Virus genome (UHGV): UHGV-0038492
DNA from: a virus
Direction: 5' to 3' (one strand)
Length of the DNA: 64,000 bases
Position numbers and translations under genes: made by a program. How positions within the stretch are numbered: the stretch's first letter is position 1; every line of letters begins with the position of its first letter. Shown here one piece after another: positions 7,582 through 48,667 of this stretch. The notes under the pieces were generated by a model. It searched no databases. It worked only from the letters and a program-made list of their open reading frames with translations, and was not told the DNA's origin.

Positions 7582-8109
7582 ATGGCATATCGCGTCGACT
7601 TAACGAAAACTCCGAAACAAATTCTGGTAGATCGTATTAACTACGTTTTCGGGGTATCCTATACCACTGATAACATCGATTTTAACGATAAAGGTGTGCA
7701 ACCACTGACGAAAGACGAAGCCCGTCGTTACGGACTGGAATCGAAAGTGGCCGCTGACTTTAAAAACGGTGTTACAGGGAACCAGGAATTCATCTTAACC
7801 CGTGTTGACCTGGCAACGTTCTTAGCTGACGAACCGGTTACGGTACCGAAAGGCGAAGTAACCAGCAGCCAAGAACTGGCAGACTATATCGTTGCCCAGA
7901 CCGGTATTGATTTGACCCAAGACGACATTATGATCGAGCCTATCAGTGAGGAACTCGATTCTTATGATGTTCGCTTAGTCCCGAATCACTTATCTTTTAA
8001 AGGAACGATTCCGGTCGTATTTACTGACCCCACACCACGCACGTTGGCGTCTCTCGTGACGAAACTTGCGCTGGACGGGTTCCGCCCTGGAGAATTAATC
8101 AATGTCTAA
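7582..8109 (+). CDS. hypothetical protein, distant member of the fibre-associated small-protein family
   Basis: ATG at 7582; contains the motif ELADYIVAQTGIDLTQDDI resembling the xNLxPxDL motif of ORFs at 27860, 38024, 47326 and 48188. Confidence 0.6.
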   Translation: MAYRVDLTKTPKQILVDRINYVFGVSYTTDNIDFNDKGVQPLTKDEARRYGLESKVAADFKNGVTGNQEFILTRVDLATFLADEPVTVPKGEVTSSQELADYIVAQTGIDLTQDDIMIEPISEELDSYDVRLVPNHLSFKGTIPVVFTDPTPRTLASLVTKLALDGFRPGELINV

Positions 8110-8989
8110 TGTCAAAGTTTACGACGGTAAACTCTCGACGGTAACACTTAATGCGATGCGTCTGGCTACCGCATTAATTACCGGTGCCGATGTGCAATAC
8201 CCACAGAAGTCCACACTGAATGAGTTTTATAAACTCATGCAAACCCCAGTGCCGGACGGTAAAGCACGTCCCCATTTGCAGTACATGGCGATTGGTAACC
8301 GTGGCCATATGGTCGACACATCAGACGTTGTTGCTGATGTTGTTCCTGTAGCTAAAGAACCTATCGCGTCCGGGATGTTTTCACGCGTTCCGTTTGTCCT
8401 GCGTACTAAAGACAACGATTTGTCTGATGAACAGCGTAAGAACTACGCTTTCCGTACTCTGGAAACCATCAACAAACGTGAGTATTGGGCGTACTACTTA
8501 AAACGCATTGACATGCGTGCAGTAAAAACTACCGACTACGACATTAAGCGTGAGAACGGTGTTGAAACTGTAGAAGACTTTGTCTATACGGATACTGAAC
8601 TGAACCCGGTACCGAAAGTGTTGCCGGACTACGATTACGATGATGACGGTACCGTTGCAATTCCTGACGGCCGTTATGTGGAATCAGGTGCAGACCTGGT
8701 TATTCCGTGGACGGACTTTGACGTTCAGGAGTACATGAACGTGACCAGCATTATGCGCGGTAGCCCTCGTAGTTCGATTATCTCTGAACTGGCACTGTGC
8801 TCTGGCTTAGACCAGGTAACGTCCGGTGACTCTGCTACAGGTTCGAAGTTCAGCTACACTGAAGCTATCGGTGTACAAGCCCTGTATTACATTTCGATGT
8901 TTACTAACCTGGCGCAGACGAACGATAAACTGTCACTGACAATCCGTATCGGTCAACCTGCACCGTTCTTCTTAGGGACAGCGAATTAA
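8102..8989 (+). CDS. hypothetical protein
   Basis: 295-aa ORF, GGAGAA RBS, start overlaps upstream stop. Confidence 0.7.
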   Translation: MSNVKVYDGKLSTVTLNAMRLATALITGADVQYPQKSTLNEFYKLMQTPVPDGKARPHLQYMAIGNRGHMVDTSDVVADVVPVAKEPIASGMFSRVPFVLRTKDNDLSDEQRKNYAFRTLETINKREYWAYYLKRIDMRAVKTTDYDIKRENGVETVEDFVYTDTELNPVPKVLPDYDYDDDGTVAIPDGRYVESGADLVIPWTDFDVQEYMNVTSIMRGSPRSSIISELALCSGLDQVTSGDSATGSKFSYTEAIGVQALYYISMFTNLAQTNDKLSLTIRIGQPAPFFLGTAN

Positions 8990-9633
8990 TGTTGATTCCT
9001 GAGCCGAGACTTCCCGATAAAATGGTCAGGATCGCGGCGATAGACCCCGGTACGAGCCATCTCGGGATGGCGGTGCTGGATTGGGAATATGGCAGCGACC
9101 AAGCCGAAGTGGTGTGGGCTGATACCATGCACGTATTAGACCCAACACATCCAAGTGCGTTTGCAGAGTGTGTCGGTAAACGCGACGATCGCTTAGTAAA
9201 ACTCGAAGCGTGCTACCGTGAGTTTCTTCGGATTGCGCGTCCGACGTTTGTTGCAACAGAAACGCCGTTTATGCGGCGGGCAAAACTCTCCGCGTATGAG
9301 TCTGGTGTAGAGTTACAGCTGATGTTAAGACGGGCGTTATGGGACGTGTTTCCAGAGAAAGTGTTACACGGGTTCAATCCGATTATTGTAAAATCATTCG
9401 TCGGTGTGGAAGCGAAAGGAACGGACAAAACAGATATGTTTCGTGCCGTAACGAAGTTGTATCGCGACCACGCGTTGTTTGACATTACAACGTTGGATGA
9501 GCACAGTATCGATGCCGTGGCGGTGGGGAATATCTTTGTCAGGGTAAACCTGTTAAACTTGAATAGTCTCCTACCGCCAAAACAAAAGTCTGCTAAGACA
9601 GCAAAACGGCGGAGAAGACGTCGGAGGAAATAG
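8989..9633 (+). CDS. RuvC/RNase-H-fold protein (putative Holliday-junction resolvase) with poly-Arg C-terminal tail
   Basis: N-terminal RIAAIDPGTSHLGMAVLD resembles the first catalytic strand of RuvC-family resolvases; C-terminus KRRRRRRRK. Confidence 0.5.
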   Translation: MLIPEPRLPDKMVRIAAIDPGTSHLGMAVLDWEYGSDQAEVVWADTMHVLDPTHPSAFAECVGKRDDRLVKLEACYREFLRIARPTFVATETPFMRRAKLSAYESGVELQLMLRRALWDVFPEKVLHGFNPIIVKSFVGVEAKGTDKTDMFRAVTKLYRDHALFDITTLDEHSIDAVAVGNIFVRVNLLNLNSLLPPKQKSAKTAKRRRRRRRK

Positions 9634-9635
9634 CG

Positions 9636-10214
9636 ATGTCGCAACCAACACAAGACGTGTCAGCCGCAATTCTTGACATTCTTATCCAAGCAGGGAACAG
9701 AAAGTTAAGTAAAGAGCAGTCCGAAGAACTGTCTAAGATTCTCAAAGACAACTTCGGTGATGATGTCTCTGTAGACGTAACGCGGTCGGGTACAAAGATT
9801 CTGTCGGAGCTACGCCCAACGCTTCTTGAGAACATTGGAAAGATGGCGGAAAACTTTCAGCAGCAAGCCACAAATGCTGTAGAGAGTTTAGGTGACGAAG
9901 TAAGCAAAGAAACGATGTTGACACTGTGGCCGAAACTTGCCGGTGCACAGAAGTTCATTATTGTTCTGCTTGCACTCGCCACTGTGGTCGTGACAGGCTT
10001 CTTAGCGTACGACACGCATCAGAACTATCCAACAGACAGTATGGAAGTGTTGTTTGTATCCTTACTTCCGCTGTTCGGACTGGTAGTATTTGCAACGTGG
10101 CCGATTAAAACGTTGGCTTACAAGTCGTTGGAGATTGCTACCAAAGTTGTCGAGAAGAAACTTGAGAAATCAGGTCAGGTCGTCGCGAAGACGGAAACAA
10201 AGACAACGAAATAA
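9636..10214 (+). CDS. membrane protein (two predicted TM helices)
   Basis: GGAGG RBS; hydrophobic segments FIIVLLALATVVVTGFLAY and LFVSLLPLFGLVVFATW; followed by terminator. Confidence 0.65.
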   Translation: MSQPTQDVSAAILDILIQAGNRKLSKEQSEELSKILKDNFGDDVSVDVTRSGTKILSELRPTLLENIGKMAENFQQQATNAVESLGDEVSKETMLTLWPKLAGAQKFIIVLLALATVVVTGFLAYDTHQNYPTDSMEVLFVSLLPLFGLVVFATWPIKTLAYKSLEIATKVVEKKLEKSGQVVAKTETKTTK

Positions 10215-10220
10215 AACCAA

Positions 10221-10255
10221 CCTCTACCTTCGGGTAGAGGTTTTCTTCTTTTTAT
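10221..10255 (+). terminator. intrinsic terminator (UUCG tetraloop)
   Basis: CCTCTACC-TTCG-GGTAGAGG followed by T-rich tract. Confidence 0.75.
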
Positions 10256-10302
10256 TTTACAATTTTTGATCATACTGTGAGACTTGAACAAGGAGACTTA
10301 TC

Positions 10303-10956
10303 ATGGAACCACTACGTTTAATGACCAGAACGCTACTGATTCCTATCTGGGAATTGAAGCTTGCCCCATTGTCTGCCTCTAATGGGGAGGTCATTGATTT
10401 TATTAAAGACGAAGAATTTGTGTTGACGGCTTTCCAGGAGACGCTGCATCGTTATTATAATGCAGTGCCTTTATCTGGCGGATTAGATTGCCCTGGTGTA
10501 GAAGGGAGTACGTCTGCGTTAATCGCAGAGTATTTAGAACAGAAAGGAATCGGGGTTGGGAAAGGCCGGGTTTATGTGGACGCCGATAAACTGAGGAGTT
10601 ACCAGATTGAGCTGACGTTTCAGATAAGAAAATTACTTACCCGCTACGGTCTTTTCTCGATTAACTGTAAGGTTGATGACGTACGGATGTTAGACCACGG
10701 TTTTACCACTGTCCTCAAAACCTGTCGCGGTAAAAGATTCGTACAGTTTGCGTGGTGGGTACCAGTATTGCGTGGTGAGAGAAAAACGGTGGAGGGGTTG
10801 TACGGCTGGGCGCTATGGAGCGAAGTTCCAGTAAATAAACTCGATGCAGTTATTCCAAAGCACCGAAACGTTCCGCTTAGCAGTTTATTTACTTCCGGCG
10901 AGAACACTACGTGGGCTGAATTCGTTAATAACGTTATGTCAATTGGGGAACAATAA
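10303..10956 (+). CDS. hypothetical protein
   Basis: 217-aa ORF, AAGGAG RBS. Confidence 0.65.
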   Translation: MEPLRLMTRTLLIPIWELKLAPLSASNGEVIDFIKDEEFVLTAFQETLHRYYNAVPLSGGLDCPGVEGSTSALIAEYLEQKGIGVGKGRVYVDADKLRSYQIELTFQIRKLLTRYGLFSINCKVDDVRMLDHGFTTVLKTCRGKRFVQFAWWVPVLRGERKTVEGLYGWALWSEVPVNKLDAVIPKHRNVPLSSLFTSGENTTWAEFVNNVMSIGEQ

Positions 10957-11432: not shown

Positions 11433-11448
11433 CCGTTGAGAGTCTAAA

Positions 11449-11925: not shown

Positions 11926-12314
11926 TGAAACGTTTTATTACTCCATTTCTAATGTTACTTTCGTTTTCTGTATTAGCTGATTTTAAACCTTACGATATCA
12001 GTCGTTACGAACCCGCTGTCCCTGGCGATAAACCGGTTGTGTTTAAAGCAGACGACCAACCCGTCACTGCGGTTCAAAACGATGAGTTTGCAGTGGTGAA
12101 TTACGGCAAAACGGACTTATGTCCTGCGGGTGGATTTTATCTGGTGAACATCAAACGTCGGACTTACCAGTTTGTTGATCCGGGTAGCTGCTCTGCAATG
12201 GTTAAGGTGACGTTAGAAACCGTACCTTACACGAATAAAAACATTAATATACAACGTTTAACCTTTTATGCGGGTGATGAAATCACAGCACGTTATCCGT
12301 TATACGGGTATTAG
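11925..12314 (+). CDS. secreted protein with N-terminal signal peptide
   Basis: MKRFITPFLMLLSFSVLADF has the n/h/c organisation of a Sec signal peptide; ATG overlaps upstream stop. Confidence 0.6.
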   Translation: MKRFITPFLMLLSFSVLADFKPYDISRYEPAVPGDKPVVFKADDQPVTAVQNDEFAVVNYGKTDLCPAGGFYLVNIKRRTYQFVDPGSCSAMVKVTLETVPYTNKNINIQRLTFYAGDEITARYPLYGY

Positions 12315-12337
12315 TGATTAGCCCCCACGGAGTTCGT

Positions 12338-12976
12338 ATGTCTTTTGTAATTGATTTCGACGTTGGCCACAGACAGAACTTACTTAATCTCGTTAGTTAT
12401 TGTAACAGTGACAGTGTACGGAAAAAGCTTTCGGCTGAAAAGGTAGACGTTACGCTCGTCGGTGCCCCAACACCGGAAGGACGCTATAAGGTAAAGTTAA
12501 CGAACCGTAACGACATAAACGATGCGGTACTGATTACCTACACAAAGCTTCAACTGAACGACTTCCTTGAGATTCCTGCCAAGTATCTGGATTGGTTTGA
12601 TTTCGAAAACGGTCAACCTAAGAACTACGATACGTGGGCAGCTTCCGCTAAAGTCGCTGTAGAGAAAATGTGCCAAGACCGAGGTATGGTGATATCTCGC
12701 GCTTGGGACACCGGTTCACAGTGTCACATTGAGTTTGACGAGTCTATCGAACGGTATGTGGTTGTCTACGAGTGCGACTCTTTTATTTATAGTGCGAGAA
12801 ACCGATTCATCTTACCTCTACACTTAGGGCAGGTGATCAACGACACGACATTAGACGGTCTTGATTACAATAACGAACTGAACAAGAAACCATTGGCGGA
12901 TTTGGACGGTGAGTTAGAAGTGTGGATGGGTCAGGCGTTGGTTGAGACAGTCGTCTTAAGCGGCCTGGAAGTATAA
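12338..12976 (+). CDS. hypothetical protein
   Basis: GGAG RBS 6 nt upstream of ATG at 12338 (track start 12314 is a GTG without RBS); terminator downstream. Confidence 0.65.
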   Translation: MSFVIDFDVGHRQNLLNLVSYCNSDSVRKKLSAEKVDVTLVGAPTPEGRYKVKLTNRNDINDAVLITYTKLQLNDFLEIPAKYLDWFDFENGQPKNYDTWAASAKVAVEKMCQDRGMVISRAWDTGSQCHIEFDESIERYVVVYECDSFIYSARNRFILPLHLGQVINDTTLDGLDYNNELNKKPLADLDGELEVWMGQALVETVVLSGLEV

Positions 12977-12986
12977 TAGTAACGGC

Positions 12987-13030: not shown

Positions 13031-13059
13031 CATTATCGACGGTCTTTATGGAGGTGACC

Positions 13060-27796: not shown

Positions 27797-27843
27797 CTCC
27801 TACCGCCCGATTCTATGGGCGGTAGGTGTTTTATTTTTTTTTC
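27797..27843 (+). terminator. intrinsic terminator
   Basis: CTACCGCCC...GGGCGGTAG hairpin then T10. Confidence 0.75.
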
Positions 27844-27859
27844 GATCTTGGAGGGTTAA

Positions 27860-28423
27860 GTGGCCACATCTTACGTACCTGATTTGAGTCTGACCTCAGC
27901 AGAGCTAGTGGTCGCTTTAATCAATCATGATAACGGGTTACAGCTTACACTAAACGAAATCCGTATTAGCGGAACTGTAACAAACCCATCCCCAACAACT
28001 TCGCGACGTAACACTATCACCGAAATCAGTAAAATCAGAAAACCAGATGGTGCGTCTGTTGTGGTTTACTACGACAGACTTGACGCCGATGAGGTATTAA
28101 CGTCCGAACCTATTTTGATTTCGTTAGACGGTACCGAAGCGAACATTCGTGATGTGCTTAGTGTTGTAAATGAATACTGCGGTACGAATTTACAACCTGA
28201 GGACTTACGTGCCTCAGATATTACTTCAGGTAATGATCCTATTGCTATTAACGTTGCTGACGATTCTCCTGCCTGGATGAATGCGTTTATGGTGACGTTG
28301 TTTGATAAAACCGAACGTGCGTTAGCGAACGAAGAAGATGAAATCTTCTGCATCGGTGACGATAGCGTTCTTACATTCGAGGTTACAGATGGCGACAGCA
28401 CTGAAGAAGACGAGACTCCATGA
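27860..28423 (+). CDS. fibre-associated small protein, family member 1
   Basis: GTG start after GGAGGG; homologous to ORF 38024 (PDLSLTS..., ...NLQPEDL); directly precedes a fibre gene. Confidence 0.65.
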   Translation: MATSYVPDLSLTSAELVVALINHDNGLQLTLNEIRISGTVTNPSPTTSRRNTITEISKIRKPDGASVVVYYDRLDADEVLTSEPILISLDGTEANIRDVLSVVNEYCGTNLQPEDLRASDITSGNDPIAINVADDSPAWMNAFMVTLFDKTERALANEEDEIFCIGDDSVLTFEVTDGDSTEEDETP

Positions 28424-28850
28424 GCTCGAAAGCTACGCAGGCACACCCCAAGGCGGGGTACTGCTGTATAGCAAAGACAATAAAGAATATAAAATTGATG
28501 TTGATAAGTTAGCCCCGGTTGCGACAGTCACCACGGTTAACGGTTCGAATAATGCCGCCACGTTGGATTTCAATACCAGCACTGACATTATTCTGGTGTT
28601 AAACGATCCTAACACTACAGTGACGTTCGCAGCCCTTACCAACGTTGCAGAAAATACCCGTTTCGAAGTAATGCTAACGATTAAGCAAGGAACAGGGGCG
28701 AATAAAGTAACCTGGCCTGAAAACGTTAAATGGCCTCACGGTGCACAACCGGTTTTATCCTACGCGGCAAATGCGGAAGACACTCTGTCGCTTTATACCC
28801 TTGATGGGGGTGCCACCTGGAAAGGTTCTCTTCTTGCAGCGGGTTACTAA
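28389..28850 (+). CDS. short tail-fibre-like protein with conserved N-terminal anchor motif
   Basis: Internal ATG at 28389 with GAGG RBS gives MATALKKTRLHELESYAGTPQGGVLLYSKD, homologous to the N-termini of ORFs 31938 and 38539. Confidence 0.6.
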   Translation: MATALKKTRLHELESYAGTPQGGVLLYSKDNKEYKIDVDKLAPVATVTTVNGSNNAATLDFNTSTDIILVLNDPNTTVTFAALTNVAENTRFEVMLTIKQGTGANKVTWPENVKWPHGAQPVLSYAANAEDTLSLYTLDGGATWKGSLLAAGY

Positions 28851-31800
28851 ATGAGAAAACATTTTCAGCGTCACGCGATTAGCTACGCGTTATCGTTAGC
28901 TTACGGACACCAATCCTTCGTTACCCGGAATACGGGAACGACTCACGACGCGCACAACGAACACTATATTCAAAACGAAGAAGGTGTTCTGTCGAATAAC
29001 CGTCATTTCATTGCTGACACTATGGCGGAATACCAACCGAACGGGGATGCGACGACCGAGGGTCAGTCGTTACACGTTATTGGTTACTGCCACATGTATA
29101 TCGCGACGAAAGACGAAAGATGGTTAGATGCGGCGAAACGTGCCTGGGATGCGTACAACACGTACTTCTACGTCGGACAACCTATTCCGACCACACCCCA
29201 GCGTCGTATTTGTAACTGGTTGGTAAACGGGAAAGAACCGGTATTAGCACATTATCCAATACATCCTACAGAACCTACCCAAGGTGGGTATAAAAGCGTT
29301 CCTGTAAGGTTTACAAACGGACAGTGTAAAATACCGCATGGTGCACCGTTCTGGGGAGAGTATTTGGATACCTTTACGTTTGCGCATCGTGGTCACCCTG
29401 CCTGGGAAGCCATTAACGCAGACGTACAGATTATCAAGGAAGACAAAGAAGGGTCAATTAATTGGGAAGATGTTTTAACTCACGTTATTACCAATCCTGA
29501 TAAACCCTACGAGGCCAAAGCGTGGGTTGATTGGCCTACGTTATTAAACAACGCTACAGGGTACACCCCGCTTTGGGGTGGGAGCGCAACAAAAGCCCCT
29601 AAACACGACGTTGACTGGATAATTGCCTGGACAGGTAACAAAATCCAGGACAGTGAGATTATTGAAACAGGATTAGCAGATGCTGATAAAGGTACCGTAC
29701 AGTTAAAAGACACGCAGTTAAACGGTGTCTATTTGATTAACTACGCGGTAAAACTGCCTGTCGAACACGGTGGTTACGAGTTTAAACGTAACGAACCGTG
29801 GCACAACCGTCCAGTTCACACGCCGTTCTTAGGATCGAAAAACCAATACGGTAACGCCGCTGATGCTGAACTGTGGTTTATTGACGCCTGTTATTTGCTG
29901 TGGCGAATCACGGGTGAAGAGAAATACAAACAAGCATTAGACTGTACTTTCTACACAGCACACGAGTACACGTATATTGATGCGGTAGATAAATTCTTCC
30001 GTCGTTCTACCGCTGCGGAAACACCGTTTACGGACGGCATTTCGTACGACTTCAATTACCCGGACACCGTAAGTGCTACATACGGCCGTGATGAGAATGG
30101 GGATATTACCATCCATGTGCCTGAAGCGGCACAACACTTTATGGAGCAGAAAGCGGTTCGATTCAGGATTAACAAAGACTCCAAACTACGTGTCACGTAC
30201 GGCGGGGTTTGTAAGAACGGCGATCCTGTCTACTGTAAAGCAATGGTAAACATTAACCCTGTGAAAGCTGATACCGAGGAAGTAAACTGGTACGGTTTAA
30301 CTTTACCTCGGTCTACGGTAAATACCGTTAAGCAGTACGATGTTGACTTAGGCCAACTTGCCCGTATTAGCACCCCAGAAGGGGAAGATTACCTGATAGC
30401 TGATGACCGTGCGTGTTCGGACTATGGTGGTTGTACGTGGGAAGAACGTTTTGAGGACAGCATTTACGACGGTCGCGCGGGTACCGTTATAGAAGCTGAA
30501 TTTCCTGATGACGGTGCCGGGTTTATTATCGGGTTCTGGTTAACCGCTGAAGAGAAGGTAAAACCGGTTTCTATTGTCTACCGTGCGGACGCAGATTTTA
30601 ACCTGCGTTTAGCTGACAGCGATAAGTGGCGTTGGTGGTGGATGTTACCCAACACAAACAACGAATGGCGTCAGGTAACGTTAAATCCGGATGATGCCAC
30701 ACTTTCCAGTTATCAGCCGGACCACACAGACGACGACCCTAAACCGGCAGCGCCGAATTTCGATAAGGTGGATCAGGTCACGATTCTCCCTGACTCTACG
30801 GTTGACCATGCGCACTTTGCTTACTATTGTGTTAACGATGTTCCACCGCTCTTTAATAAAGACGACGGTTATATTCTCACCTTCCGTATTGGGTTACGCG
30901 GCGGTGGAGAGTTTGATGCGAAGGTCGGCGACTGTACGATCAAAGATTACCGTTTGGATTCGTTAGCGTATTGTCCGGGTACGATACCGTTCTCGAACAA
31001 CTATTCAGAAGGTTCAGAACAGTTAGGTGCTTGGCACGGGATGCCTTATCCGGGTTATCAGTATCCGTTTATGTACACTATCCACAAAGACGACCGGTAT
31101 AAGCTGTGGTTAGATAACCAGATTCAATTCATGTACGATTCGCAGTTGGCTTACCAACGGCAGCTCGGTGAATTAGGGCCTGGTTGTGCAGCTTATATTT
31201 GGAACCGTTGGGACAACTACACCTACGGAGAAGCGGATACCTGGACAACGTTCCATTGGAGCGACGACCATCCGTGGCCAGGGTATCAACCTCGTGCGTT
31301 TCATGCTGCGTGTCGTTGCTGGTACGAACTGAAACTAAGAGGTAAAGAGGTTCCTGAAGCGTTAACAAGCTATATTGAAAACTGGGTGAATTGGCTAGGT
31401 GGGTTTGTGGATCGGTTTAACGGACACACCCCTAACGAGTTTCCTACAGCACCGAATAAACCCGTTTGGGTGGAAGATGACTTCAACGCACATATGTGTG
31501 CGTTGTGGTTAGCAGGCTGTTGTTGGGCATTACTCGCTGGTGCAACGAATCCGAACTACGATAAGGTAGTTAATGCGGCAATTAAGGAGTTAGGTGAAGG
31601 GTTTACGATTACCTCAATTCCGAATAAGCCGATTAACGGGGCGTGGTCTCCAGCCGCTCGAGAGTCTTCCGATAACGGTATGGCTTTTGGGTTCTACAGT
31701 GGGGAAGCGTTCCGTGCGTTAGGTCTCTACGTTACTTACAAAACTTACGGAGCCAACGCTAATATTTATCGTGACTTAGCGATTACTGACCACAGTCAAG

Positions 31801-31856
31801 CGGTTTTAGACGTTACGTTAACGATAGAAGACGATGCATTAAAACCAGAGCAATAA
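28851..31856 (+). CDS. large tail-associated protein, possible glycan hydrolase/depolymerase
   Basis: 1001-aa ORF between two fibre genes; Trp/Tyr/Asp-rich composition typical of carbohydrate-active enzymes; no motif-level proof. Confidence 0.7.
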   Translation: MRKHFQRHAISYALSLAYGHQSFVTRNTGTTHDAHNEHYIQNEEGVLSNNRHFIADTMAEYQPNGDATTEGQSLHVIGYCHMYIATKDERWLDAAKRAWDAYNTYFYVGQPIPTTPQRRICNWLVNGKEPVLAHYPIHPTEPTQGGYKSVPVRFTNGQCKIPHGAPFWGEYLDTFTFAHRGHPAWEAINADVQIIKEDKEGSINWEDVLTHVITNPDKPYEAKAWVDWPTLLNNATGYTPLWGGSATKAPKHDVDWIIAWTGNKIQDSEIIETGLADADKGTVQLKDTQLNGVYLINYAVKLPVEHGGYEFKRNEPWHNRPVHTPFLGSKNQYGNAADAELWFIDACYLLWRITGEEKYKQALDCTFYTAHEYTYIDAVDKFFRRSTAAETPFTDGISYDFNYPDTVSATYGRDENGDITIHVPEAAQHFMEQKAVRFRINKDSKLRVTYGGVCKNGDPVYCKAMVNINPVKADTEEVNWYGLTLPRSTVNTVKQYDVDLGQLARISTPEGEDYLIADDRACSDYGGCTWEERFEDSIYDGRAGTVIEAEFPDDGAGFIIGFWLTAEEKVKPVSIVYRADADFNLRLADSDKWRWWWMLPNTNNEWRQVTLNPDDATLSSYQPDHTDDDPKPAAPNFDKVDQVTILPDSTVDHAHFAYYCVNDVPPLFNKDDGYILTFRIGLRGGGEFDAKVGDCTIKDYRLDSLAYCPGTIPFSNNYSEGSEQLGAWHGMPYPGYQYPFMYTIHKDDRYKLWLDNQIQFMYDSQLAYQRQLGELGPGCAAYIWNRWDNYTYGEADTWTTFHWSDDHPWPGYQPRAFHAACRCWYELKLRGKEVPEALTSYIENWVNWLGGFVDRFNGHTPNEFPTAPNKPVWVEDDFNAHMCALWLAGCCWALLAGATNPNYDKVVNAAIKELGEGFTITSIPNKPINGAWSPAARESSDNGMAFGFYSGEAFRALGLYVTYKTYGANANIYRDLAITDHSQAVLDVTLTIEDDALKPEQ

Positions 31857-34900: not shown

Positions 34901-36497
34901 CCGTGACAGCATTCCTGGCGTAAATGCCACAGGTAATCAAGATACTACCGGCAATGCCGCTACCGCGACGAAACTGAAAACCGCTCGCAGAATTGGAGGC
35001 GTTACCTTTGACGGTACTGGGGATATCAATTTACCGGGGGTTAACCAAGCCGGTAACCAGAATACGTCAGGTAATGCTGCGACAGCGACTAAACTTCAGA
35101 CTGCGCGAAATATAGGCGGTGTGGCTTTTGATGGTACTAAAGACATCAGTTTACCTGGTGTAAACCAGACGGGTAATCAGTCGACTACCGGAAACGCAGC
35201 CACGGCCACAAAGTTGCAGACAGCTCGTACCATTAACGGTATCCCATTTGACGGCACTAGAAATATATCGTTAGGGCCTGCCGATATAGGTTGCCCGGCA
35301 TCACCTAGTGGTTGGTTAGAAACTGGCGCTGATGGCGCTGCAATAACTACAGCACAGCTAGTGACGTTATTGAAAAATAACGGCGCGTTTACCACAAGAT
35401 CGTGGGTTGCTCGCTGCGCATGGGCTTATGCCGCTAGTGCAAGTATACCTCATAGCGAGACGGGTTGTGGTGTTATTCCATTAGCTGGGGCTGTTATAGA
35501 AGTGATTAGTAACGGCAACAGCACAAACAACTACACGATCCGTATAACGACCGCCACAACGACGAGCGTCTCCGGCGCACTCACTAATGCGGAGTTTATC
35601 TACGTATTTAACGGCGATACTTACTCACCAGGTTGGCGTCGCGTGTACAATACGAGAAACAAGCCAACTGCTGCGGATGTTGGGGCGTTGCCATTATCTG
35701 GCGGTCAGTTGAATGGCGCGTTGGGTATTGGAACCACTAATGCTTTAGGTGGGAACTCCATAGTTTTAGGGGATAATGACACCGGCCTTAAGCAGAACGG
35801 GGATGGCGTTCTAGATGTTTACGCCAATAATGCTCATGTTTTACGCTTTACGAGTGGGGCTGTTCAAAGCAATAAACCTCTCAACGTTACCGGAGATATA
35901 AGAACCAATACTTGGGTTTATGCAAATAGATATTCTATTAACAGCAACTCAGGTTCTTGGATTAGCATGAGAGACCATAACGTTATTTTTGGTCTTAATC
36001 CGGTAGGAACTAGTTCTGCTCAGGCATTGTTAAGACAAGACCATGCTGATAGGAAATTTTTTGTTGGTGGTTTAGGTAACTATCAATTCGGCTTTTACAT
36101 GATAAACAACTCACGTACTGATAATGGCACCGATGCTAATGCTTATTTGCAAAACGACGGTACTTGGGTTTGTGGTGGGAACGGTAACTTTAACGACGTT
36201 TATATACGATCTGACGCCCGGCTGAAAAGTAATTTCTCTCCAATAACTAATGCATTGGAGAAGGTAAAGGAATTGTCAGGTTTAATATACGACAAAAAGG
36301 AGAACTTTAAATCCACTAATGTTCATCGTGAGGCTGGTGTTGTAGCGCAGACCTTACAAAAAGTGTTACCTGAAGCAGTTTCTACTTATAAAGACGCTAA
36401 TGGTGAGGACGTTTTGACGGTCTCTAACTCTGCACAAATAGCTCTACTTATTGAAGCAATAAAGGAGTTGGCGGAGATAATTGAGACCAAGTTATAA
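31938..36497 (+). CDS. long tail fibre protein with C-terminal intramolecular chaperone (peptidase S74-like) domain
   Basis: 1519 aa; conserved N-terminal anchor; Ala/Gln/Thr-rich helical stretch; four knob-like repeats ending W-x-x-W; five copies of the TGNAATATKLQTAR...FDG fibre repeat; C-terminal SDARLKSN motif of endosialidase/T5-fibre-type self-cleaving chaperones. Confidence 0.9.
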   Translation: MAKAVKKIRLHNLRPYTGDIGEGVLLFSKDEKDYKLPVREIIADIDTVRNAVAEAQTAATQSQEAATQATQAKNLAETAKQQTDTVAATVAQQAQTVTEKATEVGTKHTEVLAAKTAVDEVSVSVNEKAQAVAASEQSVTAAAADVTKKAETVAQQAGQVQQTATSVANTAASVEASKGAVEKIAAQVTKDKETSEGAATRSEAAAQRAEKIAAQGLVDASTIGKGIVKLNDTLTSESVTEAATPSTVKQLNDELQLKANKHSPNFTGKPTSPKPPKDSNDTSISTTSWVRDAIAELVGSSPETLNTLAELAEALGNDPNFATTITEELAQKQPISPLLTAIAAVTSAANKLLYFTGSNKVELTDFTETARSLLAKGSTADIINFLGLKPTVDKANGALQKNSNGADIPNKETFARNIGLSPDTYLRFRGKMPVDADINTFAPDANYTGTWSKSTSTNASMAKHFPEDGAVGYLEVYKAGNYSGAQRFTCRNGNVYNRMLSAAWNGTNGPWSPWRMVTTGVRPLSTSIDLNSLGGAEHMGNWRNSSSSLAVFDRHYPEEGGGAQGVLEVMEGGLYGRLQRYTTRRGTMYVRGLTATWDSSNPQWEDWIQVGYQTDGAFFKANFNDLVKPGRFSVTGQATNGPLTGSSGETILGVCEVTLRLDGTGVEQNYTTYGTGAETKGRKFQRIRTGNIWSDWREVFTSYSLPLALGIGGVAAKVDPLDWQTFDFVPGQMISTPLNTMKNIPAGMDWGVIDGNLVTILVGASEDTGTGRSMLVWRGTVSTANYRFFAVRIAGEKGSRTITPRQMPVLNAAHTWAEKQTFSKGLAGELTGNASTATKLKTARLIGGVSFDGTSDIPLPGVNQQGNQNTTGNAGTATKLQTARNINGVKFDGSRDININTLVGRGRVTALTGSNKGTPGIQMYEVYNNGYPTAYGNLLHLGGATALGEGELLIGWSGTSGAHAPVYIRSRRDTADAPWSDWAQVYTARDSIPGVNATGNQDTTGNAATATKLKTARRIGGVTFDGTGDINLPGVNQAGNQNTSGNAATATKLQTARNIGGVAFDGTKDISLPGVNQTGNQSTTGNAATATKLQTARTINGIPFDGTRNISLGPADIGCPASPSGWLETGADGAAITTAQLVTLLKNNGAFTTRSWVARCAWAYAASASIPHSETGCGVIPLAGAVIEVISNGNSTNNYTIRITTATTTSVSGALTNAEFIYVFNGDTYSPGWRRVYNTRNKPTAADVGALPLSGGQLNGALGIGTTNALGGNSIVLGDNDTGLKQNGDGVLDVYANNAHVLRFTSGAVQSNKPLNVTGDIRTNTWVYANRYSINSNSGSWISMRDHNVIFGLNPVGTSSAQALLRQDHADRKFFVGGLGNYQFGFYMINNSRTDNGTDANAYLQNDGTWVCGGNGNFNDVYIRSDARLKSNFSPITNALEKVKELSGLIYDKKENFKSTNVHREAGVVAQTLQKVLPEAVSTYKDANGEDVLTVSNSAQIALLIEAIKELAEIIETKL
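34428..35272 (+). repeat. in-frame tandem tail-fibre repeats (about 38 aa each), five copies interrupted by one knob-like domain
   Basis: Protein-level repeats GNQNTTGNAGTATKLQTARNINGVKFDGSRDI and variants; nucleotide copies are diverged. Confidence 0.8.
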
Positions 36498-36501
36498 TTA
36501 T

Positions 36502-36524
36502 CAGTGAGGGGTTCCCCCTCACTG
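36502..36524 (+). terminator. hairpin after the long fibre gene (no T-run)
   Basis: CAGTGAGGGG-TT-CCCCTCACTG perfect palindrome directly after the stop codon. Confidence 0.4.
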
Positions 36525-36544
36525 ACTCACAAGTACGTTATAAG

Positions 36545-37336
36545 GTGGTTATTTTGTCTGTATCAGCGACTCCCGGATGGATTGGTTCTTCAGCAAAAGC
36601 TGAAGCTGGTAATGGTTGGATGTCTGGCGCGATGCACACACTCGGTGTGCCAGTTCCAGGCTGGATGTCGCAATTGGCGGGAAAATCAAAAGAGGCTCAG
36701 TATTCGATCGGGGCTAATCACAATTACAATAAAGATACGCTTATTAACTATTTACGTTCCATAGGCTCTACTGCTGTCGTTGTGACCATTACAGGGGATT
36801 TAGTGTCTTATAGTAGCGGGGTTCCTTGTTTAGAGTTCCCTAGCAATCTTCCAAATTCGTATATTACCCTCATCATCAATCCTGGGGTTACAGTATACGG
36901 CAGAGGAGGCAACGGCGGTTCTAACTCACCAGGCGGTGCAGGTGGAACCGCAATACAGAACGGAATAGGAAACAGACTGCGTATAACCAACCGTGGCGCT
37001 ATTGCCGGAGGCGGTGGCGGCGGTGGCGGCGGTAACAGGGGTAGACTAATATTTGGTGGTGGCGGTGGTCGCCCATTCGGTGCTGGTGGGTCTTCCTCTC
37101 ATATGAGTTCCGGTGCGGCTGCTGGTACTATTTCCGCTCCTGGTAGAGGATCTGTTGGTGAGGGGTCTCTTAGTGCATATACAGGCGGTTCGGGTGGTAA
37201 TGTCGGTGCTGGTGGAGGAAGATGTAATACTCATGGTAACGGTACAGAATATAACGGCGGAGCAGCTGGTGCAGCTGTTACTGGTAATGCGCCAAGATGG
37301 GACGCAGTAGGTGCAATATACGGTTCACGTGTTTAA
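36545..37336 (+). CDS. glycine-rich fibre-associated protein
   Basis: 263 aa; run of nine Gly encoded by (GGN)9 and overall Gly/Ala/Ser-rich C-terminal part; N-terminus homologous to next ORF; start may be GTG 36545 or TTG 36554. Confidence 0.65.
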   Translation: MVILSVSATPGWIGSSAKAEAGNGWMSGAMHTLGVPVPGWMSQLAGKSKEAQYSIGANHNYNKDTLINYLRSIGSTAVVVTITGDLVSYSSGVPCLEFPSNLPNSYITLIINPGVTVYGRGGNGGSNSPGGAGGTAIQNGIGNRLRITNRGAIAGGGGGGGGGNRGRLIFGGGGGRPFGAGGSSSHMSSGAAAGTISAPGRGSVGEGSLSAYTGGSGGNVGAGGGRCNTHGNGTEYNGGAAGAAVTGNAPRWDAVGAIYGSRV

Positions 37337-37352
37337 TTAAAAAGGAGGGTAG

Positions 37353-37865
37353 ATGGGGGTAGCGTCAGGATGGGTCGGATCTTCAGCTAAGAATGAAACT
37401 GGCCAACAATGGATGAGCGCTGCGGGTAGTAAATTAGGATTGGGTAGACCTTTTATGATGAGCCAAATGGTAGGCAAGTCCGTAGGTTGCAAAATAGCAA
37501 CAGCTTATTATAAAACGTCAAATACTGATAAAGTAGAGAACTGGGGTGCTGTCGGAGCCGATTGGCCGTTGGTAGATAAGAACAAAGGAACGCTTTCTGG
37601 TGCCTCGAACTGTGGCTTAGGACGTTTAGTGGGGATCGTACTTACGCAAGCTCACTACATTTCTGGTGTTCCACCCACTGCGGCTTTATACATCGCAGGA
37701 GGAAGGGCAAGTAATATTACAGTAACAGTTGGTGGTGTTTCGCAAGCATTTACTTACGATAGTGTTATTAACGGTTTTCACTATTATTGGCAAGGAACGC
37801 CTAGTTCGGCCTTTATAGCGGCAATGAAGAAGACGGGTGTTACACAAGATTTGAAAGTTAGCTAA
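37353..37865 (+). CDS. paralog of the Gly-rich protein N-terminal domain
   Basis: AAAGGAGGG RBS; MGVASGWVGSSAKNETGQQWMSAAG aligns with SVSATPGWIGSSAKAEAGNGWMSGA of the upstream ORF. Confidence 0.65.
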   Translation: MGVASGWVGSSAKNETGQQWMSAAGSKLGLGRPFMMSQMVGKSVGCKIATAYYKTSNTDKVENWGAVGADWPLVDKNKGTLSGASNCGLGRLVGIVLTQAHYISGVPPTAALYIAGGRASNITVTVGGVSQAFTYDSVINGFHYYWQGTPSSAFIAAMKKTGVTQDLKVS

Positions 37866-38023: not shown

Positions 38024-38536
38024 GTGGAACAATTCACGCCAGATTTGTCGTTAACTTCACTTAACATGGTTATTTCACTGGTTAACCATGACCTCCAGCT
38101 TGACTTGCAAGAGAACGAGGTTGAAGTCAGCGACGTAAAGACCAGTAACGAAATGGATCGTGACACCACTGCTGTTGTAAAGATAAAACGTCCCGGTAAC
38201 AGAACGTTACAAATCTATTACAACCGTTTAACCGCAGAACGTTGGTTAAACCAGCAACCTATTCTGGTGCAAGTAACTGGAGAGGGGTTTAACACACACG
38301 ATTTAATCGATGCGATTAACGCAGCCTGTGGTAGTAACCTGCAACCCGAAGATCTTCAGGACGATTCATTTACAGTAGGAAAAGACGCTGTAACGTTACA
38401 GGTATCACCTAACTCCCTAAGTTATAAAGGCCAATTCTCTGTTTTGGTTTTTGGTAACGGCGAAGAGGCCGCAGTAACAAAAGATGACAACCTAATCGTT
38501 ACCGCAGATAATCGCGTCTTAACCTTTGGAGGTTAA
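38024..38536 (+). CDS. fibre-associated small protein, family member 2
   Basis: GTG start after AGGAGG; homologous to ORF 27860; precedes a fibre gene. Confidence 0.65.
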   Translation: MEQFTPDLSLTSLNMVISLVNHDLQLDLQENEVEVSDVKTSNEMDRDTTAVVKIKRPGNRTLQIYYNRLTAERWLNQQPILVQVTGEGFNTHDLIDAINAACGSNLQPEDLQDDSFTVGKDAVTLQVSPNSLSYKGQFSVLVFGNGEEAAVTKDDNLIVTADNRVLTFGG

Positions 38537-38538: not shown

Positions 38539-39159
38539 GTGGCTGAACTGGTAGGAAAGGTACGCATTCACGAGCTACCGTCACTTTCAGAAGACATTAC
38601 TGGTGTGGTGGTGTTAGCGTCTAAGGAACAAACCGAATACCAACTCCCGATTGAGAATTTAGGGGGTGGTGAGGTTACAGTGAGTCCGTCAGCGAATAAC
38701 ATCCTTAAGTCTAACAGCGATGGACTGTTTGTTGATGGCGCACATCCTATTGTACCGAAAATGGATGCAAAAACCTTATCGGGAAATATGGTGGTAGAAA
38801 AAACGCTGACAGGTGGTGCGGTAATCTGCAAAACAACGGTTGACGTTAATAATAGGCTGGGGATTTCGCAATTATCTGGGGTGTCAATTTATAGCCAGTG
38901 CCTGCTGGAAAATAAATTGGTTTACCTGGCAGAAGACGGCAGTATTATTGATGCGTACTTCTACATTAGTAATACAAAGAACACGGCCAGTACAATAACC
39001 CACACCATTCGGGTTGTCTTAGCGAAAGTACCTTCTAAAGTTGTCGATATCACCGATTTATCTGAAACTGAGGTGCAGTATCAGGATGCTAATTTGCCTG
39101 TTAAGATCGTTATTAAGCATCTTACAGGGACAACACTTTCCCAGAACGGAATGAAATAA
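38539..39159 (+). CDS. short tail-fibre-like protein with conserved N-terminal anchor motif
   Basis: GTG start after GGAGG; N-terminus MAELVGKVRIHELPSLSEDITGVVVLASKEQTEYQL homologous to ORFs 28389 and 31938; terminator downstream. Confidence 0.65.
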   Translation: MAELVGKVRIHELPSLSEDITGVVVLASKEQTEYQLPIENLGGGEVTVSPSANNILKSNSDGLFVDGAHPIVPKMDAKTLSGNMVVEKTLTGGAVICKTTVDVNNRLGISQLSGVSIYSQCLLENKLVYLAEDGSIIDAYFYISNTKNTASTITHTIRVVLAKVPSKVVDITDLSETEVQYQDANLPVKIVIKHLTGTTLSQNGMK

Positions 39160-43630: not shown

Positions 43631-43637
43631 TAAAAAT

Positions 43638-43682
43638 AATTTCAGATATATATTACCTAGGTGAGAGTTCAGCTACTCTCAC
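43638..43682 (+). promoter_or_regulatory. promoter-like motif ATTTCAGATATATATTACCTAG followed by hairpin (copy 3)
   Basis: Identical 18-nt core; hairpin GTGAGAG...CTCTCAC; ~50 nt before ORF 43712. Confidence 0.55.
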
Positions 43683-43711
43683 TTAACTAAACCATTTTAG
43701 GAGCATATACC

Positions 43712-44206: not shown

Positions 44207-44250
44207 CGTAAATTAACACTTCGACTTGTAAATCTAAAAGGAAAAATAAA

Positions 44251-45463: not shown

Positions 45464-45484
45464 TTTACCAAAAGGAAAAGTACC

Positions 45485-46657: not shown

Positions 46658-46674
46658 TTAACTAAATTCGTACA

Positions 46675-46710
46675 AGGGGTGGTTTACCACCCCTCTATTA
46701 TTGTATTTAC
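46675..46710 (+). terminator. intrinsic terminator (weak T tract)
   Basis: AGGGGTGG-TTTA-CCACCCCT. Confidence 0.5.
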
Positions 46711-46726
46711 CTAAAGGAGTATTAAA

Positions 46727-47158
46727 ATGTTTTTCGTATTAAAAGATGATATTCGTAACTACATTCGTAACAATCCGATTGCTCTAGGCGTTTTAGCAGG
46801 TTTCTGTCGTCCAAATACTGACTTCGATTTAGTTAAGTTAGAAGAATATCAAGAAATTGTGAATACTACCTACCTGCACATCTGTAGCTGGGGTAAACGT
46901 CCTCGTGAAGAGTACCCTGTGGGTGAGTTAGGTGACACCATGCACCGTGACCAGAATCTGATGCACGAATTCGTTGAATACACACTGGAAAATCTTAACT
47001 ATCCGCTCCTGGTCGACACTGTACCAGAAATGGTTGACGAATGGTTAAAACGTGTTTATAGCGATCCTACCGCCAACAAGTTACTGAGCCAGATGTCACA
47101 AACTTCTCGTGACATCGACACTCGTACGCTGATGTACTTAGCACATAATGTTCGCTAA
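46727..47158 (+). CDS. hypothetical protein, paralog B
   Basis: AAAGGAG RBS; paralog of ORF 45032; terminator downstream. Confidence 0.6.
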   Translation: MFFVLKDDIRNYIRNNPIALGVLAGFCRPNTDFDLVKLEEYQEIVNTTYLHICSWGKRPREEYPVGELGDTMHRDQNLMHEFVEYTLENLNYPLLVDTVPEMVDEWLKRVYSDPTANKLLSQMSQTSRDIDTRTLMYLAHNVR

Positions 47159-47165
47159 CCTCTTT

Positions 47166-47220
47166 CCGCTATAGGCTTCGGTCTATAGCGGAATTAATTT
47201 TCTTCCCCTTTTCTTTTTTT
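47166..47220 (+). terminator. intrinsic terminator
   Basis: CCGCTATAG...CTATAGCGG hairpin then T-rich tract. Confidence 0.6.
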
Positions 47221-47325
47221 GTTATTTTGACACCACTTTACTTACACCCTACCCGACTATTCCTATGCTGGCTGAGGGATGTAAAACGACCTCTTAAACC
47301 TTTTTACTTACTGTGAGTTAACGCG

Positions 47326-48174
47326 ATGTCTCTTACGTCAAAACAGAAACTGCTAAAACTCATCAACACTGAAAACAATATTATTCCACCGTTGACTTTC
47401 AGTGATGTTGAAATCGGGGAACCTACCGGTACTGGGGTTGATACCCAGGTGGTTCTGACCTCTAAACTTAAAGGCGATGAGTCTACTACTTTAACAGTGA
47501 CTTACCACCGTCGTAACTTACCTGACTACCTAACCGGTGAGTTGGTATTCGGTAACGACAGTGTGGTAACCGCATCAGATTTGCTTAATGCGATTAACGC
47601 AAAATACAACCTAAATATTTTACCCTCGGATATCGTTGACGCAAAAGTTGAAGGCGAAACCCATCAGCTTACCGCTAACGAGAAATCTTACGAGTGGTGC
47701 GGTGTAGTAACGCTTACGCTGCGCGATCCTATTGACCTGACTGAACTGTTACCGGTTACTCAATTAGAGAATCTGGTAGAGTATCCGTCCACGAAGAAAG
47801 GTAACGCGGCGGTTTATTCTCACCCGATTGATTTCACCGCAGAAAAAGATTACCTTGACCCGATTACTATCAACGACGCTGTAGACTTGGTAGAATTAGC
47901 TACTAAACTGGATAGCGTCGTTGACGAGAAATGGGTAAGCGTACCTAAGAACGCGGCTAACAACCTGTACGGAGCGAAGATTATTTACGATGGTCCAACC
48001 GCAGGTTACGAAGGCGCAAATACGAAGTTCACTCGTGTGTTGGTGCTAACACTCAGCCCGCTGTGTTCTAACCTGACCGGTAACCTGTTAATTCACTTTA
48101 ACGGGACCGATCGTCCGAAGTCGAAGATTGAATTAGCACAGACTAATCCGGTCTTACCGGGATTCTTAGATTAA
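47326..48174 (+). CDS. hypothetical protein, fibre-associated small-protein family (extended)
   Basis: 282 aa; contains SDLLNAINAKYNLNILPSDI matching the family motif. Confidence 0.65.
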   Translation: MSLTSKQKLLKLINTENNIIPPLTFSDVEIGEPTGTGVDTQVVLTSKLKGDESTTLTVTYHRRNLPDYLTGELVFGNDSVVTASDLLNAINAKYNLNILPSDIVDAKVEGETHQLTANEKSYEWCGVVTLTLRDPIDLTELLPVTQLENLVEYPSTKKGNAAVYSHPIDFTAEKDYLDPITINDAVDLVELATKLDSVVDEKWVSVPKNAANNLYGAKIIYDGPTAGYEGANTKFTRVLVLTLSPLCSNLTGNLLIHFNGTDRPKSKIELAQTNPVLPGFLD

Positions 48175-48187
48175 GAGGATTACAGTA

Positions 48188-48667
48188 ATGGCCAATCAAG
48201 AAACTATCTTCGACCTTATTAAAAAGGCTAACCCGGACGCTGAGTTCGACACCACCAAAGTCACACTGGGTGAACCGGTTGTGACCACCGGTACTTACAA
48301 TACCGAAATTACGGTTGCGTCGATTAAGAATCTCGGTTATGTTAATAAGCAAACGTTCCAGTATAACCGCATTGACGCAGGTTTGTATTTCCTGAACGTA
48401 TTACCGAAATTGTTGGTAGAATCTGCAACGACTACCGCTGACTTACTGCCCGTCATTAACGAGCAGTACAGCCTAACCCTTACAGAAGACGACGTGTGGG
48501 TAGAACAGGTTGGTGAGTTACCGTTAGACGGTAGCGCAATCGAACACGGTATTTTCTTCCGTCCTGAGTGTCTGACCTGGGTTGGTGGTTTTACAGTGCG
48601 TGTTGCGCGTAAACCGGCTGACGCCACACCGCCAAAGACGGCGTCTCGCGCTAAAAAGAAAAAATAA
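48188..48667 (+). CDS. hypothetical protein, same family
   Basis: 159 aa; ADLLPVINEQYSLTLTEDDV motif; Lys-rich C-terminus; terminator downstream. Confidence 0.6.
   Translation: MANQETIFDLIKKANPDAEFDTTKVTLGEPVVTTGTYNTEITVASIKNLGYVNKQTFQYNRIDAGLYFLNVLPKLLVESATTTADLLPVINEQYSLTLTEDDVWVEQVGELPLDGSAIEHGIFFRPECLTWVGGFTVRVARKPADATPPKTASRAKKKK

Follow-up and report, generated by a model that had tools for sequence, protein, structure and literature searches.

Members of the known chimallivirus family DUF7941 in the late region of an enterobacterial jumbo phage, two of them encoded directly before tail fibre genes

The 64,000-nucleotide stretch of UHGV virus genome UHGV-0038492 analysed here (the window) comes from the region of structural and late genes in a phiKZ-like jumbo phage (chimallivirus) related to Salmonella phage SPN3US. 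A sequence-only reading had picked out five open reading frames (ORFs) in it, named here by their first positions (7582, 27860, 38024, 47326 and 48188), as a family of small proteins encoded immediately upstream of fibre genes and starting with GTG. These small proteins are members of a chimallivirus-specific family, DUF7941 (Pfam PF25613), which corresponds to paralog family B of SPN3US and also includes gp126, gp127 and gp143 of phiKZ and gp22 and gp23 of phage Goslar. The original observation is real but over-generalised, and the family is already known, as it is in Pfam, was described for SPN3US in 2017 and was given a structural role in 2026. The members found in the window are listed below, where bit scores refer to PF25613 and lengths are in amino acids (aa).

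7582..8109, plus strand: DUF7941 member, ortholog of SPN3US gp83; 175 aa; 52.7 bits; PHROG 2935, E 1.4e-50
12314..12976, plus strand: diverged DUF7941 member, tentative; 220 aa; broad family hidden Markov model (HMM) E 4.7e-5; tail TLDGLDY
27860..28423, plus strand: DUF7941 gp122-like copy A; 187 aa; 74.2 bits; synteny with SPN3US gp122-gp123-gp124
38024..38536, plus strand: DUF7941 gp122-like copy B; 170 aa; 60.3 bits
47326..48174, plus strand: full-length DUF7941 protein, Goslar gp22-like; 282 aa; 176 bits over 2-259
48188..48667, plus strand: DUF7941 N-terminal domain with a basic tail (...ASRAKKKK); 98.9 bits
51335..51871, plus strand: DUF7941 member, Goslar gp23-like, not among the five; 178 aa; 32.3 bits (scored on ORF 51299); PHROG 4862, E 8e-42
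51943..52473, plus strand: DUF7941 member, paralog of 51335, not among the five; 176 aa; 37.3 bits; PHROG 4862, E 6e-34

All five ORFs were found to score above the gathering threshold of PF25613 (27 bits), with E values from 5.5e-14 to 1.4e-51, and to match the interrelated PHROGs 2935, 1037 and 3589, which are annotated as 'virion structural protein'. The proposal that 7582, 47326 and 48188 are distant members is borne out by these scores, and the aspartate of the shared NLxPxD motif and the arginine of a YxR motif are invariant in all seven window members aligned. The family of five therefore holds but its list was short, as it lacks 51335-51871, 51943-52473 and probably 12314-12976. At the first of these the longest ORF is 51299-51871, but the ATG at 51335 has the better ribosome-binding site (RBS; GAGG) and fits the 178-aa orthologs in the databases. 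On sequence comparison, 12314-12976 is probably, and still tentatively, a diverged member: the broad HMM matches its N-terminal half and its tail, with LDGL at residue 180 of 220, while no Pfam match was obtained and hhalign gave E 0.003 but a probability of only 11%. This brings the window to seven or eight members and the phage to eight or nine, since the complete genome of its nearest relative contains one further member only (NZ_CP173450.1, 189719-190282). That the motif arose by chance or by an artefact of ORF calling, with no true family behind it, can be given practically no weight. The pairwise identity among distant members is low (13-24%) and nothing else was found in favour of this explanation, whereas curated Pfam thresholds are passed, orthologs are conserved, the fold match described below is confident and a profile of the seven window members matches 2396 cluster representatives at E<=1e-3.

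Copies A and B lie in a fibre region with the following further genes.

28389..28850, plus strand: short tail fibre, SPN3US gp123-like, with the fibN N-terminus described below; 153 aa; PHROG 9017 tail fiber, E 5.6e-39
28851..31856, plus strand: tail protein, homolog of SPN3US gp124; 1001 aa; PHROG 2871 tail protein, 1455 bits
31938..36497, plus strand: long tail fibre; 1519 aa; fibN HMM E 5e-23; Pfam Peptidase_S74 and Phage_fiber_2
36545..37865, plus strand: two gp38-type adhesin genes, 36545-37336 with GP38 and Gp38_N and 37353-37865 with Gp38_N only
38539..39159, plus strand: short fibre; 206 aa; fibN HMM E 5e-23; C-terminal part matching PHROG 33169

The two gp122-like copies are clear paralogs, as had been proposed, with 36% identity over 170 aa (the whole length; E 4e-39), and both are 31-35% identical to SPN3US gp122. 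Each was also said to directly precede a fibre gene, and this was confirmed with true fibre starts at 28389 (MATALKK...) and 38539, which PGAP places identically in a 98%-identical record. The 28389 fibre overlaps the ORF of copy A by 35 nucleotides (nt), and the Shine-Dalgarno sequence of the 38539 fibre is located inside the final codons of copy B (...TTT GGA GGT TAA ca GTG; protein end ...NRVLTFGG). Coupled expression of the two genes is therefore implied in both cases. The GTG starts with a strong RBS were observed as described (27860 after GGAGGG, 38024 after AGGAGG and 38539 after GGAGG), and GTG is the sole possible start for 27860 and 38539. However, these starts are limited to the closest relatives, most of which use ATG for the 38539-type fibre, and SPN3US and Erwinia phage pEa_SNUABM_29 use ATG; GTG is therefore a local, lineage-specific feature and not the family trait that had been claimed. 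A position upstream of fibres is likewise not family-wide, since just two of the five ORFs first listed (of seven or eight members in the window) precede fibres.

The fibres at 28389, 31938 and 38539 and SPN3US gp123 were found by alignment to share an N-terminal module of ~43 residues, MAxxVKKxRLHxLxxY...VLLxSKDxKEYKLP, which we call fibN. A gp122-like gene directly precedes a fibN gene in 11 of 11 related loci (SPN3US, pEa_SNUABM_29 and IMG/VR loci, counted only where the downstream gene was readable). In Klebsiella phage Eowyn, which belongs to another genus (Eowynvirus), four genes for fibN-bearing fibres or tailspikes are interspersed with the same number of small DUF7941 genes. Conservation next to fibre genes in relatives, which had been put forward as a test, was thus observed for the gp122-like copies but not for the other members. 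The complete genome of the nearest relative contains no further fibN gene. The long fibre carries fibN at its N-terminus, followed by T-even-like fibre repeats and a C-terminal Peptidase_S74 intramolecular chaperone, and it matches many tail-fibre PHROGs. The two gp38-type genes (PHROGs 2056/1121) are located directly upstream of copy B and are 77-85% identical in DNA to gp38 of RB49/JSE/Phi1-like T4 phages; together with the long fibre (31938-37865) they appear to be a T-even adhesin module that a chimallivirus has recently acquired. Sequence searches of the PDB with the short fibres, the 1001-aa tail protein and a 1501-aa protein gave nothing useful.

Two further observations concern the gp122-like genes. 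A conserved T-run (ttttattttttttt) is found just upstream of the RBS of the gp122-like gene in the window (27830-27860), its relatives, SPN3US and pEa_SNUABM_29, and it may be a terminator or promoter element at the start of the fibre cassette. In one close relative (L008, IMGVR_UViG_3300029126_000001, 4576-6507) an upstream ORF of ~480 aa runs in frame into the gp122-like ORF, with CAG in place of the GTG start and no stop between them. The upstream ORF appears glycosidase-like by eye and no Pfam domain was found in it; the fusion could be genuine or a sequencing error.

Copy B was the sole window member modelled, and its AlphaFold 2 (AF2) model has a pLDDT (predicted local distance difference test) of 76. 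The single match of this model in the PDB at E<=1e-3 is the N-terminal domain of phiKZ gp127 (9xqd_0; E 1.6e-8, probability 1.00, template modelling score 0.60-0.67), and a profile match to the same protein (PDB 9xqd_0) was obtained at E 8e-9. This domain is modelled in PDB 9xqd as part of the outer peripheral 'star lobe' of the baseplate. Among predicted viral structures (BFVD) the model has 78 matches at E<=1e-3, and every named match among 50 listed comes from a jumbo phage, including a 'tail fiber protein' of Serratia phage Moabite and a 'tail protein' of Goslar. The best 147 of the 2396 profile matches include 64 short single-domain proteins, and in many others the domain is repeated two or three times in tandem, or is present once or twice at the N-terminus ahead of a long C-terminal region. 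Eight long DUF7941 proteins were scanned, and their C-terminal parts contain Laminin_G_3 lectin, BNR, beta-propeller, Ig, SPRY or GP38 adhesin domains.

Published work places the family in the virion. In SPN3US, paralog family B consists of gp83, gp138-154, gp160/161 and gp237, with gp122 as a candidate member (Ali et al. 2017, PMC5694885), and family B proteins including gp83 were detected by virion mass spectrometry. Their presence in particles of a tailless mutant led to their assignment to the head (PMC5694885). In the same study gp122 was undetected in wild-type virions and was seen only in 47(am1) mutant particles, while gp123 and gp124 belong to the virion outside the head and are of low abundance, gp123 with only 7 spectra (PMC5694885). 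A preprint on Goslar from 2026 names the DUF7941 family and describes ten members present in thousands of copies per virion, with gp22 and gp23 estimated at ~580 and ~2140 copies (10.64898/2026.04.21.720040). AlphaFold 3 predictions in that work give head-to-tail oligomers in which the linker of one protomer lies on the next N-terminal domain, and purified gp22 was found to form filaments by electron microscopy. It also places a phiKZ gp126-gp127 dimer in previously unexplained baseplate density and reports fusions of DUF7941 to carbohydrate-binding, glycoside hydrolase and leucine-rich repeat domains (10.64898/2026.04.21.720040). In a full-text search the name DUF7941 was found only in this preprint and in one unrelated paper.

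The member at 7582 is flanked not by a fibre but by two genes whose homologs are placed in the phiKZ baseplate.

5379..7574, plus strand: baseplate wedge, homolog of phiKZ gp128 and SPN3US gp82; 731 aa; PDB 9xqs_C PHIKZ128, E 2.3e-81
8102..8989, plus strand: DUF7208 protein, homolog of phiKZ gp139; Pfam DUF7208 E 9.6e-101; PDB 9xpg_A PHIKZ139, E 2.9e-34

These two homologs also identify the phage that carries the DUF7941 genes as phiKZ-like. ORF 7582 starts with ATG after GAGA, in agreement with PGAP, and encodes an N-terminal domain followed by a tail with an LDGF motif (...LASLVTKLALDGFRPGELINV). It is the positional equivalent of phiKZ gp127/gp126, as the phiKZ order is gp128-gp127-gp126, with gp139 elsewhere in that genome. 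The order of wedge, DUF7941 (one to three copies) and gp139-like gene was also observed in Goslar (gp35-gp31) and in an unrelated metagenomic contig (L029). In the virion atlas of phiKZ, gp139 dimers make up a band with wedge gp128 at its start and the DUF7941 protein gp127 at its end (PMC13250141).

The remaining members resemble the abundant Goslar proteins. The 47326 protein consists of an N-terminal domain, a linker and a C-terminal domain (end ...VLPGFLD) and aligns with Goslar gp22 (28% identity, E 2e-10, linker included) and with phiKZ gp127 (E 2.5e-5). The 51335 protein aligns over its full length with Goslar gp23 (27% identity, E 1e-8) and ends in ...GELDGFTAPGVGG, and the 51943 protein ends in ...NGELDGFTA. 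Both 47326 and 48188 precede an endolysin gene of the GH108 family (49320 being its last position and 48730 its first; Pfam), which is located directly downstream of 48188. The same siting was found in phiKZ, where gp143 lies before gp144, and in Goslar, where gp22 and gp23 flank gp24.

The short DUF7941 proteins share a C-terminal tail of ~20 residues, [ST]LAxx[IV]xxxxL[DN]G[FL]x[YP], which was observed in most short representatives of the family; its counterparts in Goslar are the gp22 linker and the gp23 tail. In the window the motif is present in 7582, 51335, 51943 and 12314, and in 47326 as LENLVEY, with LPGF at the protein end. Copies A and B have the variant VLTF[GE], which in copy A (...IGDDSVLTFEV) is followed by an acidic extension, and 48188 has its basic tail instead. 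We noticed that the wedge upstream of 7582 also ends in a tail of this type: its last ~22 residues (...TLNEQVKINDLDGFTLDQLPK, nt ~7507-7571; C-terminal end ...INDLDGFTLDQLPK) form an LDGF tail, with the motif at residue 721 of 731. L[DN]G[FL] was seen five times in the window against 1.4 +/- 1.1 expected, and always near a C-terminus. The tails of the wedge and of the DUF7941 protein encoded next to it compare as follows.

Window: wedge ...LNEQVKINDLDGFTLDQLPK; downstream DUF7941 ...LASLVTKLALDGFRPGELINV
SPN3US: wedge ...RDMDGFRLDQLPK; downstream DUF7941 ...RALDGFRPGEFLNG
ChrisDB: wedge ...YALDGFRPDEFFS; downstream DUF7941 ...RSLDGFNIGEFF
Phobos: wedge ...LEERVVVRNNGPYNTP; downstream DUF7941 ...LVERVLITDVGAYPTA
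CR5: wedge ...LVERVVIRDNGPYTAP; downstream DUF7941 ...LVERVLITDVGPYPTA

The wedge tail resembles and co-varies with the tail of its neighbour, being LDGF in Seoulvirus-, Erskinevirus- and Machinavirus-like phages, while in Derbicusvirus a wedge NGPY is paired with VG[AP]Y in the DUF7941 protein. Up to 10 of 16 residues are identical, but the DNA identity of the tail segments is just 41-52% (52% in Phobos and CR5, 41% in the window), and recent gene conversion is therefore not the cause of the likeness. Among 61 full-length wedge homologs the tail was found to be a discrete appendage, present in the nearest clade of the window phage and in some distant ones and absent from others, which stop just before its position; one distant wedge, only 28% identical, ends in ...VLDGFS. 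No LDGF tail is present in the wedges of phiKZ and Goslar, and the sharing of this tail between wedge and DUF7941 proteins was found neither in the phiKZ and Goslar structure papers nor by full-text searches. When a natural two-domain DUF7941 protein was modelled with AF2 (pLDDT 92), the LDGF linker between the domains had a pLDDT of 80-97 and the terminal tail one of 42-66, a contrast which fits a peptide that is predicted to be ordered against a neighbouring domain.

On balance, we favour the view that the DUF7941 proteins are structural modules of an outer baseplate and fibre network, in which 27860 and 38024 serve as fibre-specific adaptors. Each member has an alpha/beta N-terminal domain of ~145 residues, here termed the 'socket', and after it a short tail or linker, termed the 'plug'. 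As published studies of Goslar and phiKZ indicate, the proteins would be joined head to tail, with the linker of each protomer resting on the N-terminal domain of its neighbour, in chains that are fixed to the outer baseplate. In such an arrangement 7582, whose gene lies between those of the wedge and of the gp139-like protein, would be the member nearest the baseplate; 47326, 51335 and 51943 would be the abundant chain-forming types, as Goslar gp22 and gp23; and 48188 would be a socket-only member with a basic tail. The 27860 and 38024 proteins would be low-copy adaptors, each expressed together with the fibre gene downstream of it, and they probably link the fibN fibres to the DUF7941 and baseplate network. 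The analysis establishes family membership, fold, gene order, translational coupling, domain fusions and the tail motif, including its occurrence on the wedge, while we infer both the plug-to-socket contacts and the retention of gp122-like proteins in the virion. A structural adaptor is the best reading because the 38024 model matches the phiKZ gp127 N-terminal domain and because the domain is elsewhere fused to lectin, sialidase-like, propeller and Gp38 adhesin domains.

Several observations weigh against this view. The ortholog of 27860 and 38024 in SPN3US, gp122, went undetected in wild-type virions and was found only in a mutant preparation, and the head assignment of family B (PMC5694885) is at odds with a location in the baseplate, unless free filaments are co-purified. 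The gp122-like tails (VLT[FY]G) are without the canonical LDGF plug, and their conservation may be partly due to the overlapping fibre RBS. Furthermore, the long fibre at 31938 carries fibN although the gene directly before it is not a DUF7941 member, and Goslar has DUF7941 but no fibN in its first 50 kb, so that the pairing with fibres is clade-specific.

The sequence-only reading had suggested fibre chaperones or adaptor subunits. Of these, the adaptor fits a virion-component domain with receptor-binding and depolymerase-type fusions and with coupling to fibre genes, while the chaperone is unsupported. If the gp122-like proteins were non-structural assembly factors, which help the adjacent fibre to fold, to trimerise or to reach the baseplate but do not stay there, the non-detection of SPN3US gp122 in wild-type virions in which its neighbours gp123 and gp124 were found (PMC5694885) would be explained, and the tight translational coupling to the fibre gene and the conserved pairing would be expected as well. 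However, as gp123 itself gave only 7 spectra, the non-detection of gp122 is weak evidence of absence, and a rare partner of 19 kDa could escape. All characterised relatives are virion proteins (phiKZ gp127, Goslar gp22/gp23 and eight others, and SPN3US family B), and the domain occurs in tandem arrays and covalently fused to receptor-binding domains, which is unexpected for a chaperone. No match to a chaperone family was found, Pfam and PHROGs giving the five ORFs only DUF7941 and 'virion structural protein' families. Genes for fibre chaperones are usually located downstream of the fibre they serve, whereas 27860 and 38024 are upstream of theirs in every locus examined; the long fibre, moreover, includes an S74 chaperone domain of its own, and the gp38-type genes come after it (S74 in 31938, GP38 domains in 36545/37353). 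A chaperone role for 27860 and 38024 is thus unlikely, and assembly factors of any such kind appear improbable. It is also unlikely, if not to be dismissed as readily, that the DUF7941 proteins form a free 'fibre cloud' or a head decoration independent of fibres, with adjacency reflecting only the clustering of late structural genes. Most members (7582, 47326, 48188, 51335 and 51943) are indeed not beside fibres, family B was assigned to the head in SPN3US (PMC5694885), and Goslar gp22 forms filaments on its own (10.64898/2026.04.21.720040). Simple clustering, however, does not sit well with an adjacency of gp122-like and fibN genes that holds in all readable loci, survived duplication of the cassette here and recurs in Eowynvirus, nor with a fibre RBS embedded in the upstream DUF7941 ORF, and the adhesin and lectin fusions show that the DUF7941 module carries host-binding parts.

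The structural adaptor reading can be extended to a more tentative proposal, namely that a general plug-and-socket code organises the outer baseplate, in which the LDGF tail that links DUF7941 protomers is also carried by the wedge C-terminus. This is possible, but we would sooner expect it to need revision than to stand as it is. On this proposal the first DUF7941 protomer (7582) would be tethered by the wedge; alternatively, the gp139-like protein would receive both tails. Fibres with fibN could plug into gp122-like sockets in a similar way, and fibre modules, including the horizontally acquired T-even fibre, would be exchangeable cartridges. The fibN of the long fibre is nearer to that of 28389 (22/41 residues) than to that of 38539 (16/41), which, as a sequence comparison, would be consistent with two socket/plug specificities. 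At a comparable position fibN has L[EDP][SG][YFL], with KLDGFTG in one relative. Since the fibN profile matched none of the collected DUF7941 proteins in hmmsearch at E<=1, the idea of fibN as a mimic of the DUF7941 linker comes down to this short motif and the one relative, and it is speculative.

As the family is known, the main value of the analysis is the correct annotation of seven or eight genes in an uncharacterised enterobacterial jumbo phage of ~222 kb. The coupling of gp122-like and fibN genes offers a concrete candidate for fibre attachment in chimalliviruses, which the phiKZ and Goslar maps do not fully resolve. The tail peptide shared by wedge and DUF7941 proteins suggests an anchoring point for the proposed DUF7941 filaments and may help to reconcile the 'head' assignment in SPN3US with the 'baseplate' assignments in phiKZ and Goslar; it is the part most worth testing.

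A second fibre-like region is located near the end of the window. The sequence-only reading had seen a weak echo of the PDLSLTS motif in the N-terminus of a 401-aa coiled-coil protein (58224-59429, minus strand). This protein was found to be unrelated to the family, with no HMM match even at E<=10 with filters off and no DUF7941 match in Pfam. Its N-terminus (YPLDLTGSLTSN...GPFF) instead matches the fibre N-termini of Goslar gp25/gp29 and, by sequence, is a second, distinct fibre N-terminal module in the window phage. The fibre-like genes here (58224-59429 and 59464-63969) adjoin a set of minus-strand genes at 53737-58159, which includes two adjacent radical SAM proteins (53737-55059 and 55043-55966) and, near them, two 131-aa Cys/Gly/Ser-rich proteins with no Pfam match (57352-57750 and 57761-58159). 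This set may be a cassette for peptide or protein modification within the structural region.

The relatives of the window phage are Seoulvirus-like phages of 220-250 kb. No close relative was found among deposited phage genomes, where the best DNA match is 72% over one gene, that of the 1001-aa tail protein (28851), in pEa_SNUABM_29. Near-identical circular records of ~222 kb have, however, been deposited as 'plasmids' of E. coli 98232 (98% identity) and Enterobacter ludwigii (97%) (NZ_CP173450.1 and NZ_CP134650.1), and contigs of ~223 kb were found in assemblies of Salmonella, Shigella and E. coli as well as in IMG/VR. Together these records and contigs suggest a jumbo phage that is carried in bacterial isolates.

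Small structural proteins that join a fibre end to the baseplate or to a fibre segment, and are encoded beside fibre genes, are familiar from T4, where gp9 forms the socket of the long fibre and gp35/gp36 are hinge connectors. The likeness of the gp122-like proteins to these is one of analogy only, drawn from general knowledge: no similarity in sequence or fold to T4-type fibre adaptors was found in the Pfam scan of the five ORFs or the PDB fold search with the 38024 model, and DUF7941 also polymerises and has many paralogs. Closer parallels were found among the chimalliviruses. In phiKZ, gp127, gp126 and gp143 have the same Pfam family and fold as the window members, and the arrangement of wedge gp128 before gp127/gp126 resembles that of the window wedge before 7582, as gp143-gp144 resembles 48188 and its GH108 endolysin. 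The two phages differ in that three members are reported in phiKZ against eight or nine in the window phage, in that the phiKZ wedge has no LDGF tail, and in that the phiKZ fibres are gp131 paralogs. SPN3US is nearer, with gp83 as the ortholog of 7582 (62.6% identity) and gp122, gp123 and gp124 in the same order as 27860, 28389 and 28851. It has ~20 members, including the long tandem array gp138-154, where the window phage has only 47326 and 48188; in the window phage the cassette of gp122-like gene and fibre is duplicated, and a T-even-like long fibre and two gp38-type adhesins are inserted between the copies. Goslar shares with the window the order of wedge, DUF7941 and gp139-like gene as well as that of DUF7941 and endolysin, and its gp22 and gp23 align with 47326 and 51335 with linker and tail included, but its wedge is without the LDGF tail and no fibN was found in its first 50 kb. 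Its host-binding domains are fused to DUF7941 itself (gp86, gp92 and gp161), whereas the window phage has separate fibN fibre genes beside a small DUF7941 gene.

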